A stretch of 64,000 nt of DNA from a virus. Location: positions 64,314 through 128,313 of IMG/VR virus record IMGVR_UViG_3300020048_000039; one strand, written 5' to 3'. The notes below the pieces were generated by a model that saw nothing but the letters and a program-made list of their open reading frames with translations, did no database searches and was not told the DNA's origin. The number at the start of each line of letters is the position of its first letter. Within the stretch, counting starts at the first letter, position 1. Shown in pieces: positions 1,886-9,850 of this stretch. The position numbers and the translations under genes are program-made.

Positions 1886-4852
1886 ATGCAAGAGATACCA
1901 ATTTTTATTGTGCATTGTGAGCGAATACCACGAAGGCAAGCATACTATGTTAGGTTTCCACTTAATGATGGTCTTGTTGAAAAAATAAAAAGTCTTCCCG
2001 AAGACACCCGAAAATGGAGTGCTCTTAATTTGGCATGGGAAGTCAGTGCCTATTCATTATTCCTTTTAATTAAGAAGTACACTAAGTCAACCAAAATCCA
2101 TTTCGATTTCGGCAATGATATTAGCCGTGGAATATTTATTGAGCAGGTTAAGAAAATTGAGATTGCCGAAGAAGAAAAAAGACTATTCATTGCTGACCTT
2201 AATATAAAGAAAGAGCATTGGGTTAAATATAAGGAAGAACTCGAAACTGAATACGTTAAGTATAGTGATAAAATGCACGCATTACTTAACGGTGATGTTA
2301 AATTATACAAGCACCAAATCACTGCTGCTCTTTTCATGAATGCCACCCGAAATGCATTAATTTCACATGAAATGGGTCTCGGAAAGAGCTTATCTTCAAT
2401 ACTTTACGTTGAAATGAATAAATTCGATAAAGTAGTAGTTGTTACTCCAAATTCTTTAAAGTTTAACTATTATTATGAAGTGGAGAAGTTCACTCAAAGC
2501 AATTCACACATAGTCAAGTGGAGAAAGAATAAATGCAGTATTGAAGATGCAAAATACATTATTGTTAATTATGATTTCTTCAACCCAAGTAGTAAAGAAG
2601 CATTTAAAGCAAAATGGGATAAACTTAAGATTGGTAAGGTTGATGCAGTGATTTGTGACGAATGTTTTCCATATAATACACCCGTTGAAACCAATATGGG
2701 TTCAGTGATGATTGGTGATATTGTGAGCCATAAACTTAATGTTAAAATTATATCCTATAATCATAGATTAAAAAAAATTGAACTAAAATCAGTTAAGAGG
2801 TATTTATATAGAGGATATAAAGATATCGTTAAAATTAAATTATCGAACGGGAAAATAATTGAATGTACACCAGAGCATAAATTTTATTCTGTTGATAGAA
2901 ATAAATATATACCAATTAAGGATTTTAATTATGGAGAAAGACTATATGAATACGAGAAAGAAAAAAATATCGACAACAATAGTAGTCTGTCCACAATGTG
3001 GGGTGGAGTTCAAGCAAAAGCGAAGCTCACAAAAATTTTGTTCAAAAAGGTGTTCGGTTGCTTTTACTTCAAAAGAGAATATAATAAAAGCATTGAAGAC
3101 AAGAAAAATGAATGGGAATTTATCACCAATTGTGACGAGAAAGTGCCAACATTGCGAAAAAGATTTTTCTGTTCAAGAAAGAATAGTCCAAAGATTTTGC
3201 TCAACAAATTGTTCGGCAAAATGGAGAATGATGCAGCCAGAAATAAGAATGGTGGTATATACAAAAGAATCTGGTCAGAAGATTTCAAAAGCAATTACGG
3301 AAAGCTACATCAAAAAACCAGAATTGAGAGAGCGTCTCTCGAAGAGAATGAAAGAAGTCAATCCAATGTCTCTATTAATAAATATAGAAAAAATGAAAGC
3401 AAAAAAACTAAACAGTACTTTTCTTTCAAGAGGTGGAAATGGACAATTAACCAAACAGCAATTAAAATTATATGGAGCAATTTCTGGAATGACTCAAATG
3501 AAAATGGAATTAGCAATACCAGTATTAATGCCACTAAGAAAAATGAATTTAATAGTAACTTCACCACCAACACACTACAAGGTGGATATTGGAATACCGA
3601 GTCTGAATTTAGCGATAGAGGTGGATGGAAATTCCCACAAAACGAAGAAATGGAAATTTTTAGACAAAAGAAAAACGGAAATTTTAGAATTGTTAGGGTG
3701 GAAAGTATTGAGATTTTGGAATCAAGAGATAGACGAAAATTTGGAACAGGTGGTAGCCAAAATAAAGGTGTTTATGATTTAGAAATTGAAGATAATCACA
3801 ATTTTTTCGCTAATAATATACTTGTGAGTAATTGTCAGAAGCTCAAAAATATTAAAGCAAATACTTATAAGAATTTCAGCAAGACATTTAGAAAAGATGC
3901 ATTTAAGAATGAAAAGGTAAGTAAAATATTCTTATCTGGAACTCCTGCACCTAATCGTGCACATGAATTGTATTCGGTTTTAAACCAAATATCCCCAACT
4001 GATTTTGCAACAAAGAAATACTTTAATGAATATTATTGTGGTATGGTATATGATTTTACATATGGTTGGGGTTATGACCCTGACCAAATGGAAACTCGTT
4101 TTGAAGAACTCTATCACAAAATTGCACCATTTACTCATAGAAAGAGAAAATCCGAAGTACTGAAAGACCTTCCAGATAAAATCTATCAAAAGGTTATGCT
4201 GGAAATGGACGATAGTGAATATAAGATTTATGATGAAATAGAATCTGGTGTTGCTAATGAATTTGTATTGCACCCAAATGGCAATGCCTTGACCACAATG
4301 GTTCGTTTAAGACAATATACTTCACACATTAAAATTAAACCAGTTATTGAGTTGATTGAGAATATCTTAGAAACTGGTGAAAAGGTTGTGGTTGTGGATT
4401 TCTTTAAGGAAGGTCTTTATGAATTAAAGAAACAGCTTGGTGATGTAGCAGCACTGCATACTGGCGACCAATCACCCGAAGTACGTGCTGACTTAGTTAA
4501 AGAGTTCCAAGACCCAAACGGTAAGATAAAAGTATTCCTTGGCTCAATACAAACATGTAATTATGGTTTGACATTAACAGCAGCCAGTAAGCTATTTATT
4601 TTATCACTACCATTCAGTGTTGGGGAATACGACCAAGTTGCAGACCGTTTACATAGAATTGGTCAAAAGGATGTTGTGAATATCTATCCACTGATGTTCA
4701 GGGATTCTATTGATGAATATGTGTATGCTGCAATTGAGAGTAAGCGTAAGGAAATTGTTAAAGTAATTGACAACGAAGACTACGAATCAAAAGTCGGTGA
4801 ATCAATATTAAGTGAAGTCATTAAAAAAATAAAGGAAAAACATGGGAAGTAG
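1886..4852 (+). CDS. SNF2-family (HARP/SMARCAL1-like) helicase, intein-containing precursor; about 598 aa after splicing
   Basis: Walker A HEMGLGKS; Walker B VICDE|CQ split by the intein; motif III LSGTPAPN; motif VI QVADRLHRIGQ; HARP-like N-terminus. Confidence 0.9.
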   Translation: MQEIPIFIVHCERIPRRQAYYVRFPLNDGLVEKIKSLPEDTRKWSALNLAWEVSAYSLFLLIKKYTKSTKIHFDFGNDISRGIFIEQVKKIEIAEEEKRLFIADLNIKKEHWVKYKEELETEYVKYSDKMHALLNGDVKLYKHQITAALFMNATRNALISHEMGLGKSLSSILYVEMNKFDKVVVVTPNSLKFNYYYEVEKFTQSNSHIVKWRKNKCSIEDAKYIIVNYDFFNPSSKEAFKAKWDKLKIGKVDAVICDECFPYNTPVETNMGSVMIGDIVSHKLNVKIISYNHRLKKIELKSVKRYLYRGYKDIVKIKLSNGKIIECTPEHKFYSVDRNKYIPIKDFNYGERLYEYEKEKNIDNNSSLSTMWGGVQAKAKLTKILFKKVFGCFYFKREYNKSIEDKKNEWEFITNCDEKVPTLRKRFFCSRKNSPKILLNKLFGKMENDAARNKNGGIYKRIWSEDFKSNYGKLHQKTRIERASLEENERSQSNVSINKYRKNESKKTKQYFSFKRWKWTINQTAIKIIWSNFWNDSNENGISNTSINATKKNEFNSNFTTNTLQGGYWNTESEFSDRGGWKFPQNEEMEIFRQKKNGNFRIVRVESIEILESRDRRKFGTGGSQNKGVYDLEIEDNHNFFANNILVSNCQKLKNIKANTYKNFSKTFRKDAFKNEKVSKIFLSGTPAPNRAHELYSVLNQISPTDFATKKYFNEYYCGMVYDFTYGWGYDPDQMETRFEELYHKIAPFTHRKRKSEVLKDLPDKIYQKVMLEMDDSEYKIYDEIESGVANEFVLHPNGNALTTMVRLRQYTSHIKIKPVIELIENILETGEKVVVVDFFKEGLYELKKQLGDVAALHTGDQSPEVRADLVKEFQDPNGKIKVFLGSIQTCNYGLTLTAASKLFILSLPFSVGEYDQVADRLHRIGQKDVVNIYPLMFRDSIDEYVYAAIESKRKEIVKVIDNEDYESKVGESILSEVIKKIKEKHGK
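2663..3832 (+). mobile_element. intein (390 aa) inserted in helicase Walker B, between DE and CQ
   Basis: N-terminal C (CFPYNTPVET), block B IECTPEHKF, block F VYDLEIEDNHNF, C-terminal VSN followed by +1 Cys. Confidence 0.92.
2931..3782 (+). CDS. Zn-finger + Vsr/DUF559-like PD-(D/E)XK endonuclease nested in the +1 frame of the intein
   Basis: CPQC..FCSKRC and CQHC..FCSTNC repeats; C-terminal VDIG..NLAIEVDGNSH..D..K...LGWKVLRFWNQEI. Start at ATG 2931, or at ATG 2946 which has GGAG 9 nt upstream. Confidence 0.85.
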   Translation: MEKDYMNTRKKKISTTIVVCPQCGVEFKQKRSSQKFCSKRCSVAFTSKENIIKALKTRKMNGNLSPIVTRKCQHCEKDFSVQERIVQRFCSTNCSAKWRMMQPEIRMVVYTKESGQKISKAITESYIKKPELRERLSKRMKEVNPMSLLINIEKMKAKKLNSTFLSRGGNGQLTKQQLKLYGAISGMTQMKMELAIPVLMPLRKMNLIVTSPPTHYKVDIGIPSLNLAIEVDGNSHKTKKWKFLDKRKTEILELLGWKVLRFWNQEIDENLEQVVAKIKVFMI

Positions 4853-5201
4853 ATATGTTCATGGTATGAATCCGTTTCGTGATTTCTTAGTTGAGTCACT
4901 AAAATATGAATACAATATTGCAGGAAAAGCAGAAAAACGAGAGATTGACAACTCTTTTAAATATATTTTAGAAAACGTTTTGAATAACGGAAAAGAGGCT
5001 GTACATTTGGACTTTGAAATCATCGATAAAAACGGTTGGTATAGTGTTAGGGGTAAAAACCCGCCAAGTGCACTGTGGCTCAGTGGAATACTGGTCGAAA
5101 ATGTTGAGTATATGTTAGATGCCAAGTCATTCGAAATTGGTGATAGAAAGTACAAATACAACCAAAAAACAGGTGAATTAACTTTTAAATTAAAAAAATG
5201 A
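4842..5201 (+). CDS. hypothetical protein
   Basis: 119-aa ORF overlapping both neighbours in operon-like fashion. Confidence 0.7.
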   Translation: MGSRYVHGMNPFRDFLVESLKYEYNIAGKAEKREIDNSFKYILENVLNNGKEAVHLDFEIIDKNGWYSVRGKNPPSALWLSGILVENVEYMLDAKSFEIGDRKYKYNQKTGELTFKLKK

Positions 5202-6154
5202 AGAAAAGTGTTGCAGTATTGTTCTCAGGTGGATTAGACTCCACCTATTTGGTGTGGAAAAATTTATCGGAAGGAAACACAGTATTTCCAGTTTACATCG
5301 AAATCACTAACAATCAAGTTAAATCTGTTTTGGAGAAAAATAGAATTGGGTTGTTGCGTAGAGAATTTCTAAAGGAGTTTAAGACTCCAATTGGTGATTG
5401 GGAAGAACCACTCGCAAATATTAATTATTTGTTAAGTGTTGGTGTTGATGCAAATGAAAGTGCATTGCGTTTGAGACAATTACCTGTTTGGATGGTAGGA
5501 TTATCATTTATGCAAAGCATGAAAGTTGATGAAATTCAAATTGGCTATGTGTCAAATGATGATGCAATATCATATTTGGATGAAATTCAGGCTATTTACA
5601 AGTCTTATGAAAAGATTACGGAAACGACAATGATACCATTAACATTTCCATTAATAAAGAAACATAAATGGGAAATGGCATCTGAATTGCCAAATCAATA
5701 TTTGAAGTTGGTAATTAGTTGTGAGGGTGCTCATATTGTTAAAGAAAAGGACAGAGAATTAGTTTCGAAGAATGTATATGGTAGTAGTGGTGTAGCATCT
5801 GACCCTGATTATCTTATTGAGTATGAACCATGTTGTGATTGTCAACCCTGTAAAACAATAATGGCAACTGGAAGTTATTATGGTGTATATGAATTTCCTG
5901 AAAACTATAAAAAACGTGTTGTTTATAATCATATTTGGGCATTATATCGTGAGGGATATAAAATAACCGATAAAGATGGAAAAAATCCATGTGAACCTGC
6001 AACACTTGACTATGCGAAATTCACTCCATACCAAATGGAATTACCACTCGATTGGTGTAACTACATACCAACGTTAGATTGCTGCGCTTGGAAGGGTGAA
6101 GAGAAATTGGCTGACCTTGAAGCCGATGGATGTTGTGATATTAGAAAAGCTTAA
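5198..6154 (+). CDS. queC: QueC-like PP-loop ATPase (7-cyano-7-deazaguanine synthase family)
   Basis: N-terminal VAVLFSGGLDST PP-loop; Cys cluster SC...PCCDCQPC resembling the QueC Zn site. Confidence 0.65.
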   Translation: MKKSVAVLFSGGLDSTYLVWKNLSEGNTVFPVYIEITNNQVKSVLEKNRIGLLRREFLKEFKTPIGDWEEPLANINYLLSVGVDANESALRLRQLPVWMVGLSFMQSMKVDEIQIGYVSNDDAISYLDEIQAIYKSYEKITETTMIPLTFPLIKKHKWEMASELPNQYLKLVISCEGAHIVKEKDRELVSKNVYGSSGVASDPDYLIEYEPCCDCQPCKTIMATGSYYGVYEFPENYKKRVVYNHIWALYREGYKITDKDGKNPCEPATLDYAKFTPYQMELPLDWCNYIPTLDCCAWKGEEKLADLEADGCCDIRKA

Positions 6155-6169
6155 AACAAATAAAACTGA

Positions 6170-9100
6170 ATGGATAAATTAAATGTATTAGCAGAAATTA
6201 AGGGATTCCTTGAGGGTTATAATGACGATTTAAAATATTTGGTAAATGTCGAAACCGACAATAACACCAATATTGCAGATTGCGTCATTCATGAACCAAA
6301 TAAAGAGCCAAGGATTGTAAAAATTCCCTACGAACCTTTCTTATACATGAAAGACTTGGGTAAGGCTAATCATACTTTGTATGAAGGTCACACCGAAGAA
6401 TACATGGTGAGTAAACAAATTAAATATGGTATTACCATAGCTAAATTAAAAACTGGCAATCAGAAACGTTTGGTTAATGGATATTGCTATAAACTAACAA
6501 GTAGTAGGTCATATAATGATATCATCAACTATATTAGGGATGGTGGATTAAATCCATATGAAAAACTTGTAGATGATGATGGTAGGGTTGTTAACGATGC
6601 AAAAGGCGAACCAATTTATCCATATCGTGATTTATTTTATTCTGTGAGAGGAACTGAACAATTCTTTATATCGAAACAATGTCGTTTGTTTAAGGGTTTT
6701 GAGGAATATAAAGATGTTCACAAAGTTACATTTGATATTGAAACCACTGGTTTGAGGCATCAAATAGCAAGAATGTTTGCAATTGGTGTCAGAGATAATA
6801 GGGGATTTGAAACAATACTTGAATTGGATAAGTTAGATGACAATGAATCCGAAATCAGATTAATTCAAGACTTCTTTAATTTAATTCAGATTTTAAAACC
6901 TGCTGTAATTTCAGGATATAATTCCGAGAATTTTGACTTTGAGTTTATTCTTGGTAGAGCAAAAGTTCTTAAAATGGATTTGGAAGCAGTTCCCACAAGC
7001 CTCAAAGAAGGGGTTCATTTAAGGAGAAGACCCAATACATCTGTAAAATATGGTAATACTGCTGACAAATTTACTGCTACTGAAATGTGGGGTATTTCTG
7101 TTATTGATATTATTCATGCTACAAAAAAGACTGCTGCTGTTAATACCGAAATTAAAGCAACTGGCTTAAAATATATTGCCAAGCATGAAGGAATTGCGAA
7201 ACCAAATCGTACCTATATTAAGGGTGAAGATAATTCGATTGGAAACTTCTATGCACAAAATAAAACCTTTTTAATTGACGAAAGTAATAATTATATCCAG
7301 TTACCTGCTAAATATCAGGAAGTTGGAAAGAAATTATATGTTCTTCAAGGCAATAAAGGAAGGATTAGTGAAGCAAAGTACAAAGAAAAAAGAAACGAAT
7401 ATCTCAGCGAATGTCCAGAATTTGTAGAATGGTTTAGAAATGAAGCATTATCTAAAGGACTAATTACCTTTATTAGTGGTAAGAAACTTGTTAAGCAATA
7501 CTTGCTTGATGACCTTTGGGAAACTGAACAGGTTGACGAACTCTACAATCAATCATCTTTCATGTTAGGTAAGATTGTTCCAACTACATATCAGCGAGTC
7601 TGTACGATGGGTACTGCTGCTATTTGGAACTTACTTTTAACTGCGTGGAGTTACGAAAACGACTTAGCAATACCAATTTGTGATAAAACCATAAAATTTA
7701 GTGGTGGTTTGGCAAGGTGTTATAAAGTCGGATTTACAAGGCGAATCAAAAAGATTGACTACGCTTCCTTGTATCCTATGATACAGTTATCAGAAGATGT
7801 ATTCCCAATGTTTGATGTTACTGGCGTAATTAAAAAACTTTTACTTTACTTAACAACAACACGCAATATTTACAAGAAACTTGCAAATAGTGATGAACTT
7901 AATGAAGAAGAAGTCATGTTGTTGAAACAAATCGACCATGAAGTTCACATCAAGTATCTTAATAATACTCTGACAACCGAAGACCGTGCTATGTTTAAGA
8001 TTAAACAGCTACCTATCAAGATTTTGAACAACTCGTTGTTCGGTGCTTTGGGTTCTGCTATTTCGTTTAACTGGTCTGATAATGTTTGCGCTGCTCGTAT
8101 TACCTGTACTGGTAGACTTCACCTAAGACATGCAATTGATTGGTTTACTGATTATGATTGTGTGGCTTTACTTGCAGTAACTGACGGTATTAACTTTAAC
8201 TATCCCGAAAAGAGTAGAATTAGAGTTACTGACACTACTCAAACCATTGAAGATGAAGAACAAGATGTTGAAGAAATGTGGCAGTATGGTGGTAAGAAAG
8301 GCTTAAATGCACTTATAGAAAAGTACAATACAGAAGAAATGTCGTCACCATACATGTCTGTTGATGATGATGGAGATTCAATTTCATGTTTGAACCTTTC
8401 ACGTATTAACTATGCAACTCTTTCATTGGCAAAGGATAAGAAAACCAAAGAAATGAAAGAAAAGGTTAAGCTAACTGGTAACACCATAAAGTCAAAAGTA
8501 ATGCCAGAATATATCGAAGAATTTATCGATAAAAGCTTAACTATGGTACTTCATGGTCAAGGCAAAGAGTTTGTGGACTATTATTATGACTATTGTGATA
8601 ATATTCGTTACATGCAAATTCCATTAAAGAAAATTGCAAGTAAGAGTAAGATTAAAATGACTTTAGCTAACTACAAGAAAAGAGGTAAAGATAAAAATGG
8701 TAGGGATAAAGGTATTCAGGCACACATGGAACTTCTATTGGAAAAACGTGCCAAGATAGCCGAAGAACTTTTCGAAGTGCATAAAGAGTCATTTAACCTT
8801 ACTAAAATAAAAAAGGAACTAACTGCTGACGATAAAATGAAGTTTGTTGCCAACTACATGCCACAAGAGCCTGAATTAGATTCTGTTGTATATTATGTTA
8901 ATTCTGGCTACAGGAAATCGCATGGTGATTCACGAAAGATTGTTGATAAATTAACTGGTGAAGAAAGATTCTGTGCCACATTAATCAGCAATGAAGACTT
9001 ACTTGATAATCCAAGCATGACTGGTATCTATAACTACGAAAAATATCTTGATGCATTCAACAAACGTGTTGAGTCATTATTGGTTGGATTTGAACCTGAA

Positions 9101-9850
9101 ATTCAGCAAAAGATTTTAGTTAAGATTGCTCAAAAAGATAATGCGAAAACAAATGTAAGTAAAGGTGATTTAATAAAAGCAGGATTTACTCCTGATGATT
9201 TGGAATTAAAAAACTTTGATTCTGATGATTATGCTGAATCCATGTACTTAGAAGAAATGGAAGTTGATTTCTGGAATAAAACTGGATATGACCCAAGGAA
9301 AATCTGGAATGGATTTAAAATGAGGGAAGATTACAGAGTATATTATGAAATTTATGACGATGCTCTGGAGTTTTTAAATAAAAAGATGAAAGAAAGTGAT
9401 AAACCTGAAATAAAATCCATTAACGATGCGTATGGTGATGGTGATTTAGTTCTCATTAAAGATGGTAGTGAATATCACCTTGGTGCATATAATGGCACAT
9501 ATCTTCAAATTGTTAGAGAAGATGTAAAAGTGCCTAAACATCAAATCGAAGTTGAGCAAGAAAATAGGCGTATTGAGAATGAAAAAAAACTTGAAGAGTT
9601 GAGAGCCAATGAATTAACCACCAAAACTGATAGGGATGTTTTCTTAGATGCTCAACAGGCAAAACAAATAAAGTATTTCTCAGCGTTTAAACAGCAGTTT
9701 AACATTCCACTTACATTGACCATGAATGAATTATTTTCAGAAGTACCAAATGCAAAAGATGCTTTTGATGATTTTATTGCTGAGTCAGATGGAATGCTTG
9801 ATGAAGAAGCTTTGGAATATTCTGGTATTGATAACGATGATGATGTATAA
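6170..9850 (+). CDS. polB: family B DNA polymerase
   Basis: Exo I TFDIETTG, Exo II GYNSENFD, Exo III YLLDD, motif A KIDYASLYP, motif B KILNNSLFG, variant motif C AVTDG. Confidence 0.92.
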   Translation: MDKLNVLAEIKGFLEGYNDDLKYLVNVETDNNTNIADCVIHEPNKEPRIVKIPYEPFLYMKDLGKANHTLYEGHTEEYMVSKQIKYGITIAKLKTGNQKRLVNGYCYKLTSSRSYNDIINYIRDGGLNPYEKLVDDDGRVVNDAKGEPIYPYRDLFYSVRGTEQFFISKQCRLFKGFEEYKDVHKVTFDIETTGLRHQIARMFAIGVRDNRGFETILELDKLDDNESEIRLIQDFFNLIQILKPAVISGYNSENFDFEFILGRAKVLKMDLEAVPTSLKEGVHLRRRPNTSVKYGNTADKFTATEMWGISVIDIIHATKKTAAVNTEIKATGLKYIAKHEGIAKPNRTYIKGEDNSIGNFYAQNKTFLIDESNNYIQLPAKYQEVGKKLYVLQGNKGRISEAKYKEKRNEYLSECPEFVEWFRNEALSKGLITFISGKKLVKQYLLDDLWETEQVDELYNQSSFMLGKIVPTTYQRVCTMGTAAIWNLLLTAWSYENDLAIPICDKTIKFSGGLARCYKVGFTRRIKKIDYASLYPMIQLSEDVFPMFDVTGVIKKLLLYLTTTRNIYKKLANSDELNEEEVMLLKQIDHEVHIKYLNNTLTTEDRAMFKIKQLPIKILNNSLFGALGSAISFNWSDNVCAARITCTGRLHLRHAIDWFTDYDCVALLAVTDGINFNYPEKSRIRVTDTTQTIEDEEQDVEEMWQYGGKKGLNALIEKYNTEEMSSPYMSVDDDGDSISCLNLSRINYATLSLAKDKKTKEMKEKVKLTGNTIKSKVMPEYIEEFIDKSLTMVLHGQGKEFVDYYYDYCDNIRYMQIPLKKIASKSKIKMTLANYKKRGKDKNGRDKGIQAHMELLLEKRAKIAEELFEVHKESFNLTKIKKELTADDKMKFVANYMPQEPELDSVVYYVNSGYRKSHGDSRKIVDKLTGEERFCATLISNEDLLDNPSMTGIYNYEKYLDAFNKRVESLLVGFEPEIQQKILVKIAQKDNAKTNVSKGDLIKAGFTPDDLELKNFDSDDYAESMYLEEMEVDFWNKTGYDPRKIWNGFKMREDYRVYYEIYDDALEFLNKKMKESDKPEIKSINDAYGDGDLVLIKDGSEYHLGAYNGTYLQIVREDVKVPKHQIEVEQENRRIENEKKLEELRANELTTKTDRDVFLDAQQAKQIKYFSAFKQQFNIPLTLTMNELFSEVPNAKDAFDDFIAESDGMLDEEALEYSGIDNDDDV

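Follow-up and report, generated by a model that had tools for sequence, protein, structure and literature searches.

A predicted homing endonuclease gene overprinted in the +1 frame of an intein in a phage SNF2-family helicase

The window analysed here is a stretch of 64,000 nucleotides (positions 64,314 to 128,313) of the virus record IMGVR_UViG_3300020048_000039, a 128-kb IMG/VR contig estimated to be ~39% complete. It has a G+C content of 32.5% and its long open reading frames (ORFs) all lie on one strand. One of these, at 1886-4852 on the plus strand, is open from end to end and encodes a SNF2-family helicase (Pfam SNF2-rel_dom, E 6.7e-21; Helicase_C, E 2.3e-11) as a precursor of 988 amino acids, which includes an intein of 390 amino acids (2663-3832). 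The same DNA, read on the same strand in the +1 frame, contains a second gene (2931-3782), and its product of 283 amino acids is a predicted endonuclease.

The N-extein (1886-2662) ends with the residues ...VICDE of the Walker B motif (motif II), and the C-extein (3833-4852) begins with CQKLKN, the rest of SNF2 motif II. The junctions, ...VICDE|CFPYNT... and ...NILVSN|CQKLKN, were located by jackhmmer and by comparison with intein-free orthologues, in which the sequence VICDE-SQKLKN is uninterrupted; the intein therefore lies inside helicase motif II (Walker B, DExH followed by the SNF2 'LKN'). The insert matches Pfam Intein_splicing (E 1.7e-15; 57.6 bits against a cut-off of 35.8) over residues 14-390 with a central gap of ~240 amino acids, and carries the signatures of a class-1 intein: Cys1, a block B of T69-P-E-H72 (Thr69-x-x-His72), and Ser389-Asn390 followed by Cys+1. 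Among 65 relatives Cys1 and Asn390 are invariant, His72 is conserved in at least 90%, and the +1 residue is either cysteine or serine. In an AlphaFold2 (AF2) model, the N-terminal Hint lobe (residues 1-100; 2663-2962) has a predicted local distance difference test score (pLDDT) of 93-98 per 10-residue block. The C-terminal Hint lobe (residues 341-390; 3683-3832), which contains blocks F/G, ends in NILVSN and is matched by jackhmmer to the C-terminal part of the intein, reaches ~96-97 in the strands at 341-352 and 370-389. The intervening linker (residues 101-340; 2963-3682) is free of stop codons, matches no Pfam domain and has a pLDDT of 41-70. These features confirm, at the level of sequence, that the insert at 2663-3832 is a class-1 intein of the Hint fold, and splicing itself is predicted. 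A group I intron was considered and rejected in view of the open frame, the conserved Hint lobes and the intein-type residues at the junctions. A search of the element's own genome, i.e. the ~39% represented in the 128-kb record, detected no second copy of the nuclease or of any intein.

An open run of 307 codons occupies the +1 frame (2859-3782); its ATG at 2931 is followed by a second ATG at 2946, and by a TAG stop after 283 codons. A Shine-Dalgarno (SD)-like AAGGA (2918-2922), read from the sequence and included in an SD scan of all loci, is situated 8 nt upstream of the first ATG. The encoded protein begins with two zinc ribbons, both following the pattern CxxC...CxxxC: the first (2988-3059) is formed by C20, C23, C39 and C43, as seen in the translation and alignment, and the second (3144-3212) by C72, C75, C90 and C94, all four of which are invariant in alignment A1, with C90 and C94 at least 90% conserved in 73 sequences. 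A helical region follows (3213-3485; AF2 helices 92-184) with conserved columns that include the motifs RM..NPM and RGGNG, and is presumed to bind DNA. The N-terminal half of the nuclease matches PHROGs annotated as phage HNH endonucleases (their N-terminal parts), which indicates a DNA-binding module common to phage homing enzymes. No NUMOD family was matched in the nuclease at E <=0.1, the N-terminus consisting of the two zinc ribbons and the helical region. NUMOD repeats characterise the prototype enzyme I-Bth0305I and do not define the catalytic family.

The C-terminal part of the nested protein (3486-3779) is a Vsr-like/DUF559 catalytic domain, as judged from invariant columns, profile matches to the Protein Data Bank (PDB) and Foldseek. 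The +1 product matches PF04480 (DUF559) with an E-value of 4.6e-14 (52.6 bits; curated Pfam cut-off 20.6), and a profile built from 73 family members matches PDB entries 3hrl (DUF559; E 1e-13) and 3r3p (the I-Bth0305I catalytic domain; E 1e-3). The nuclease model has a mean pLDDT of 91.5, and its best Foldseek matches are 3r3p (template modelling (TM)-score to target 0.74), 3hrl (0.75) and E. coli Vsr (1vsr). Foldseek E-values for the whole 283-amino-acid model were 3e-3 to 2e-2, short of the tool's 1e-3 line, because the match is confined to the C-terminal 100 residues; the fold was called on TM-score to target, the probability value and the sequence-profile match. Residues D219, E230, D232, H236 and D245 are invariant in the 73 sequences, which share 28-71% identity, and align with the catalytic Asp/His/Asp set of Vsr and I-Bth0305I in a hidden Markov model (HMM) alignment, with a one-residue uncertainty at the histidine. 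The catalytic residues of these enzymes are D51/H64/H69/D97 in Vsr and D196/N208/H213/D222 in I-Bth0305I (PMC3239194). Sequence and model thus classify the nested product as a zinc-ribbon plus DUF559/Vsr-like (EDxHD-type) endonuclease, for which site-specific cleavage is predicted. An earlier sequence-only reading of this DNA had described a stop-free intein frame with no recognisable endonuclease in its centre, and a protein with two zinc fingers and a Vsr/DUF559-like nuclease in the +1 frame; HMM searches of both frames bear this description out, with the intein found in frame 0 and DUF559 in +1.

The intein frame contains no stop codon in the 281 codons overlapped by the nuclease gene, and none in the whole insert at 2663-3832; the third frame of the insert contains 66. 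In the corresponding relative frame of the window's other 35 long genes, stops account for 14.9% of codons and no open run exceeds 51 codons. Resampling of synonymous codons from window usage, under the constraint of an unchanged nuclease protein, produced a mean of 26.4 stops in the intein frame (minimum 13), and shuffling of the nuclease's own synonymous codons a mean of 13.0 (minimum 4). An intein frame without stops was reached in 0/20,000 trials, by resampling and shuffling alike. Since 26 or 13 stops are expected and none is observed, chance is excluded; the codon-shuffling test that the sequence-only reading had proposed shows a depletion of stops in the intein frame. The mechanism of depletion is directly readable: intein-frame stops can arise only where a nuclease codon with T in its last position precedes a codon that begins with AA, AG or GA. 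None of the 97 nuclease codons preceding such codons ends in T, compared with 43% in the window's other genes, and third-position T is less frequent in the nuclease overall (20% vs 41%). Each NNT codon has an NNC synonym, a property of the genetic code that lets the spacer stay open while the nuclease protein is unaltered.

The frame under protein-level selection was identified from codon positions, using a codon alignment of the window gene with four intein-bearing orthologues (L006, L007, L089 and L118). The third codon position of the host gene diverges fastest in both exteins (0.40-0.60) and in both Hint lobes (0.24-0.47). Within the overlap the pattern is displaced by one base: divergence peaks at the host first position (0.35-0.48), equivalent to position 3 of the nuclease codon, and is lowest at the host third position (0.14-0.30), equivalent to position 2 of the nuclease codon. 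It follows that the nuclease is the conserved protein in this region. The intein-frame product of the overlap differs at 46-61% of its amino acids, and its codon positions are without protein-level constraint in the linker; the intein frame is constrained there essentially only against stops, through the choice of third positions in the nuclease. Structure prediction is in agreement, with the confidently modelled nuclease in one frame and, in the other, two confident lobes joined by a low-confidence linker of 240 residues. The sequence-only reading had proposed that the intein frame is kept open as a spacer, and both the divergence across homologues and the depletion of stops sustain this view. 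One short stretch (3695-3722) is doubly constrained: the same bases encode R-V-E-S-I-E-I-L-E in the intein and G-W-K-V-L-R-F-W-N in the nuclease, and column counts in both alignments show that both motifs are majority-conserved across the family. Compatibility of the two motifs at this point may have fixed the phase of the overlap.

A megablast search of GenBank phages with the helicase gene gave no match, relatives being reachable at the protein level only. A tblastn search with the nuclease identified 40 genomes of Vibrio, Corynebacterium and Pseudomonas phages in GenBank, and each time the match lay beneath an annotated helicase coding sequence (CDS). Five of these were inspected (MG592563, JQ177061, NC_042354, MT104474 and OZ196825; L001-L005), which are cultured, finished genomes representing the three groups of phages. 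In all five the nuclease is +1 to a helicase with an intein at DE|C...HN|CHH, and the annotation consists of the helicase CDS alone, with the intein and the nested nuclease gene unannotated.

At least 305 relatives were confirmed in a pattern scan of IMG/VR; the best 80 were classified together with the five GenBank phages and the window (86 loci). The nested +1 layout is present in 79 of the 86, the window included, with the nuclease lying wholly within a longer ORF. The phase is constant in these loci, the host codon phase being one base behind that of the nuclease, and 79/79 nested hosts match both Hint lobes of the window intein and have C1...[H/S]N|[C/S] in motif II. Across the 20,219 overlapped codons their host frames have no stop at all, where synonymous shuffles within each gene predict 953. 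Five of the other phage/IMG-VR relatives classified are free-standing nuclease genes; these have 7-16 stops in the host-equivalent frame and therefore serve as a natural control for the nested loci. An ATG is located just 5' of the first CxxC in nearly every nested locus, preceded at 4-12 nt by an SD-like motif in 49/79.

The same arrangement was found in cellular genomes. The best 80 of 385 matches in species-representative bacterial and archaeal genomes were classified, and 68 of these 80 loci are nested in the same phase, the other 12 being short free-standing genes. The nested cellular loci include Chloroflexota, Proteobacteria, Cyanobacteria, Bacteroidota, Verrucomicrobiota, Planctomycetota, Firmicutes and Patescibacteria. 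No in-frame fusion of nuclease and intein was present among the 86 phage/IMG-VR and 80 cellular loci classified. The host proteins belong to at least 16 unrelated groups, including SNF2 and ResIII/DEAH helicases, clamp-loader AAA+ proteins, helicase-methyltransferase fusions and multidomain proteins of ~1,900 amino acids, and the insertion occurs in three registers around the same motif (DE|CH, DExH|[C/S] and DExHK|C). In L031, L032, L033 and 12 more loci, the composite occupies the Walker B site (LLDE|CHxLT..AQ) of clamp-loader (DnaX-like) genes of phages or of the candidate phyla radiation (CPR). The ResIII helicase at L063:1980-5873 carries, besides the overprinted intein, a second intein with an in-frame LAGLIDADG_3 domain (Pfam).

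Used as a query, the C-extein identified 80 orthologues of the helicase locus in related large phages (54-79% identity). Motif II is uninterrupted in 69 of these, nearly always as ...GATGAA|AGTCAGAAA... (DE-SQKLKN, with serine at +1). Within the group, a motif-II intein is carried only by the window, L006, L007, L089 and L118, all with cysteine at +1, and intein and nuclease are present or absent together. In approximately 18 orthologues, Walker A (GLGK|...THN|T) is the site of another intein, a canonical one whose LAGLIDADG domain is in-frame; examples are L096:660-2000, L113:2660-4001 and L115:2660-4001. The first residue of this intein is Cys, Ser or Ala depending on the contig. L089 and L118 carry both the Walker A and the motif-II inteins, and the window the motif-II intein alone. 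The +1 frame of the Walker A intein has 28-39 stops, which provides an internal control: ordinary inteins of the same gene are not dual-coding. An apparent 936-nt insertion in some orthologues was rejected as a BLAST alignment artefact of the Walker A intein.

We conclude that the locus is very probably a composite mobile element, consisting of a class-1 intein in the SNF2 helicase motif II of an uncultured jumbo phage and a homing endonuclease gene overprinted on it in the +1 frame. Two open frames with separate homologies coincide here, selection acts on the nuclease frame, the arrangement recurs at ~150 loci, and most orthologous sites are empty. In the proposed mechanism, ribosomes would read the helicase mRNA in two ways. 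Translation in the helicase frame would yield the precursor, from which the intein would splice out despite its unstructured linker of ~240 residues, restoring DE-CQKLKN. Initiation at the predicted internal SD and ATG (2918-2922 and 2931) would yield the free 283-amino-acid nuclease, in line with the separate translation that the sequence-only reading had proposed. This enzyme could then cut intein-less alleles (the ...GATGAA|AGTCAGAAA... sequence) in co-infecting relatives, and recombinational repair would copy intein and nuclease together. The composite probably arose when a free-standing endonuclease gene entered the linker of a mini-intein, in a single invasion that was followed by spread among Walker B sites; such an origin is consistent with the existence of free-standing relatives and with the phase that the nested loci have in common.

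Several observations weigh against this interpretation. Divergence of the nuclease and of the splicing domains is only modestly correlated (Spearman 0.39), which is too weak to prove strict co-transfer of the two as one unit, and which neither proves nor contradicts a single invasion. Nested homologues are free of stops in both frames, as the sequence-only reading required, apart from L026 (TGA at 3069-3071) and L068 (TAG at 3249-3251), which are nested and have one host-frame stop each. These two stops could be recent mutations or errors of assembly, could be recoded, or could mark a stage on the way to a split intein. No SD-like motif was recognised by a simple rule in 30/79 nested loci, several of which are AT-rich phages whose hosts may not use SD sequences. 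Finally, the residue before the terminal asparagine is Ser389 in the window intein and not the usual histidine, the relatives having His in 45/65 and Ser in 18/65. A penultimate histidine is usual in inteins and not obligatory.

As an alternative, the metagenome-derived contig, covered at a low depth of ~5x, might contain two compensating frameshift errors that mask an ordinary in-frame endonuclease domain, as the sequence-only reading had itself allowed. Such errors did not materialise: the region is free of insertions and deletions in contigs of a separate sample and of a different study, and together with the wide recurrence this excludes assembly error. If only the nuclease frame were real, ~13-26 stops would moreover be predicted in the intein frame where none is observed, and the same phase in ~147 independent loci, finished genomes of cultured phages among them, refutes the artefact, whose probability we regard as practically nil. 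The nuclease might instead be produced by programmed +1 ribosomal frameshifting, as a fusion to the N-terminal Hint lobe and not from a start of its own. Its frame is indeed open for 72 nt upstream of the ATG at 2931 in the window, and further in some relatives, but this upstream stretch is variable in length and unconserved and no conserved slippery site was seen. Nearly every locus has an ATG a few codons ahead of zinc ribbon 1, which is also where the free-standing homologues begin, and the SD-like motifs described above likewise favour internal initiation, so that a frameshifted product is very unlikely.

An active nested nuclease could also serve a purpose other than homing, such as excluding or degrading the DNA of competitor phages, with the intein acting as a safe harbour. 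Free-standing relatives do exist outside inteins, which would suit such a role. The sporadic distribution of the intein in one orthologue group, where nuclease and intein always come and go together, and the occurrence of the same composite at the same motif in so many unrelated groups of host proteins argue instead for mobility, and I-Bth0305I, which is structurally closest, has a proven role in homing (PMC3239194); a non-homing function is accordingly judged improbable. Homing-cycle theory predicts that endonucleases decay after fixation, and the penultimate serine of the window intein might be taken as a sign that nuclease or intein is already inactive, the open frames being recent leftovers. 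Such a relic is hard to reconcile with catalytic residues that are invariant over 73 sequences as divergent as 28% identity, with substitutions concentrated at the wobble position of the nuclease frame, with conserved splicing residues and with the absence of stops in 20,219 codons, and we give it little credence. The composite homing element thus remains the explanation that we favour.

The general design, an intein endonuclease encoded out of frame, is already published for other nuclease families, in 1998 and in 2025-2026 preprints. Gorbalenya 1998 is credited with an alternative-ORF endonuclease in the intein of Synechocystis dnaX, as far as the citing papers describe it, and these disagree on whether the dnaX case is antisense or sense. 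For cyanobacterial dnaX inteins, a 2026 preprint places a LAGLIDADG enzyme in the '+2 ORF' and shows frame-specific dN/dS (the ratio of non-synonymous to synonymous substitution rates) together with a disordered in-frame region. These cyanobacterial inteins resemble the element described here in having a continuous intein with an unstructured in-frame middle, an overlapping endonuclease ORF on the sense strand under purifying selection, and an SD sequence before the nested start. Secondary invasion of a mini-intein is the origin proposed there, and the Walker B site of clamp-loader (DnaX-like) genes is also a host site for some relatives here. They differ in the nuclease, which is LAGLIDADG-like and in the '+2 ORF' there but zinc-ribbon plus DUF559/Vsr-like and always +1 here, and in their hosts, which here are mainly phage SF2 helicases in a family extending across many phyla.

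Inteins of actinobacteriophages have been reported with antisense LAGLIDADG, antisense Vsr-like and frame-3 EndoVII-like endonucleases, all called rare, and Vsr-like endonucleases are stated there to be otherwise known only with split inteins (bioRxiv 10.1101/2025.01.02.630785). Common to those inteins and the present family are an endonuclease outside the intein frame, the pairing of Vsr-like enzymes with full inteins, and an in-frame region without recognisable structure. In the actinobacteriophages, however, the Vsr-like enzymes are antisense, the out-of-frame sense case is EndoVII-like and in frame 3, and the hosts are DNA polymerase, minor capsid, terminase and ThyX proteins, with no helicases. 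The architectures are described as rare there, whereas here one architecture is the rule in ~150 loci.

In 'fractured genes', split inteins have a free-standing Vsr-like or GIY-YIG endonuclease gene between their halves (Dassa et al. 2009, PMC2677866). There too the intein linker in phage DNA-metabolism genes holds an endonuclease gene of Vsr-like (EDxHD) type; the 3' end of the nuclease overlaps the downstream intein part by 6-69 bp, and the model put forward is that of a free-standing endonuclease gene invading an intein (PMC2677866). The intein is split there by a stop and a new start, whereas here one chain runs through the whole nuclease gene, the host frame being continuous in the window and 147 relatives and having a single stop only in L026 and L068. 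The zinc-ribbon/DUF559 overprinted-intein family therefore looks like a plausible unbroken counterpart of fractured genes.

I-Bth0305I is the prototype EDxHD homing endonuclease, encoded in a group I intron and bearing NUMOD repeats (Taylor et al. 2011, PMC3239194; PDB 3r3p). It gives the best fold match to the catalytic domain of the nested nuclease, has an equivalent catalytic Asp/Glu/His/Asp set and occurs in phages, and both proteins combine an N-terminal DNA-binding region with a C-terminal Vsr-like domain. The two differ in that one is intron-borne with NUMOD repeats and the other intein-borne with zinc ribbons, and by sequence DUF559 (3hrl, E 1e-13) is closer to the nested nuclease than I-Bth0305I. 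A 'hidden' out-of-frame HNH endonuclease has been described for ShiLan in phage methylase genes (Arsenault et al. 2025, PMC11855218). That gene is likewise overprinted on an in-frame, stop-free insertion in a phage gene; unlike the present case, it encodes an HNH enzyme, and intein splicing domains were not found. None of the papers compared describes a sense-strand +1 zinc-ribbon/DUF559 endonuclease in motif-II inteins of helicases or clamp loaders, or the breadth of such a family. A literature search on alternative-frame intein endonucleases in phage helicases returned nothing relevant, and one on inteins with DUF559 returned one unrelated genome paper.

The locus is a large natural illustration of dual coding under syntactic selection, with constraint against stops only in one frame and selection as a protein in the other. 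An architecture called rare in recent literature is the rule for one nuclease family, and is unannotated even in finished genomes of cultured phages; gene callers miss such nested genes. The family also offers many natural predicted endonucleases aimed at conserved helicase DExH codons, and inteins that would tolerate a disordered insert of ~240 residues. A wider proposal, to which we would give slightly less than an even chance, is that the combination of an intein with the +1-overprinted zinc-ribbon/DUF559 endonuclease is ancestral, and obligate, in a very large family of mobile elements. This family would target Walker B/motif II codons of P-loop nucleoside triphosphatases (SNF2 and DEAH helicases, clamp loaders, helicase-methylase fusions) in phages and more than 10 bacterial phyla, and would never be fused in-frame. 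If so, this type of nuclease could not work as a domain of an intein, for example because it must dimerise as a free protein like I-Bth0305I, and overprinting on a stop-free spacer would be a stable end state, the unbroken precursor of the split inteins of fractured genes, and no rare accident.

Three neighbouring ORFs of the window were noted. An ORF of 318 amino acids at 5198-6154 starts with an SGGLDS PP-loop motif and appears QueC-like by eye; it may encode a nucleotide- or DNA-modification enzyme, and is situated between the helicase gene and a gene for a family-B-like DNA polymerase of 1226 amino acids (6170-9850). At 3-995 lies an open-ended ORF with many tandem NIAQGNSALYSNTTG-like repeats and a coiled-coil-like tail, whose product looks like a fibre protein.

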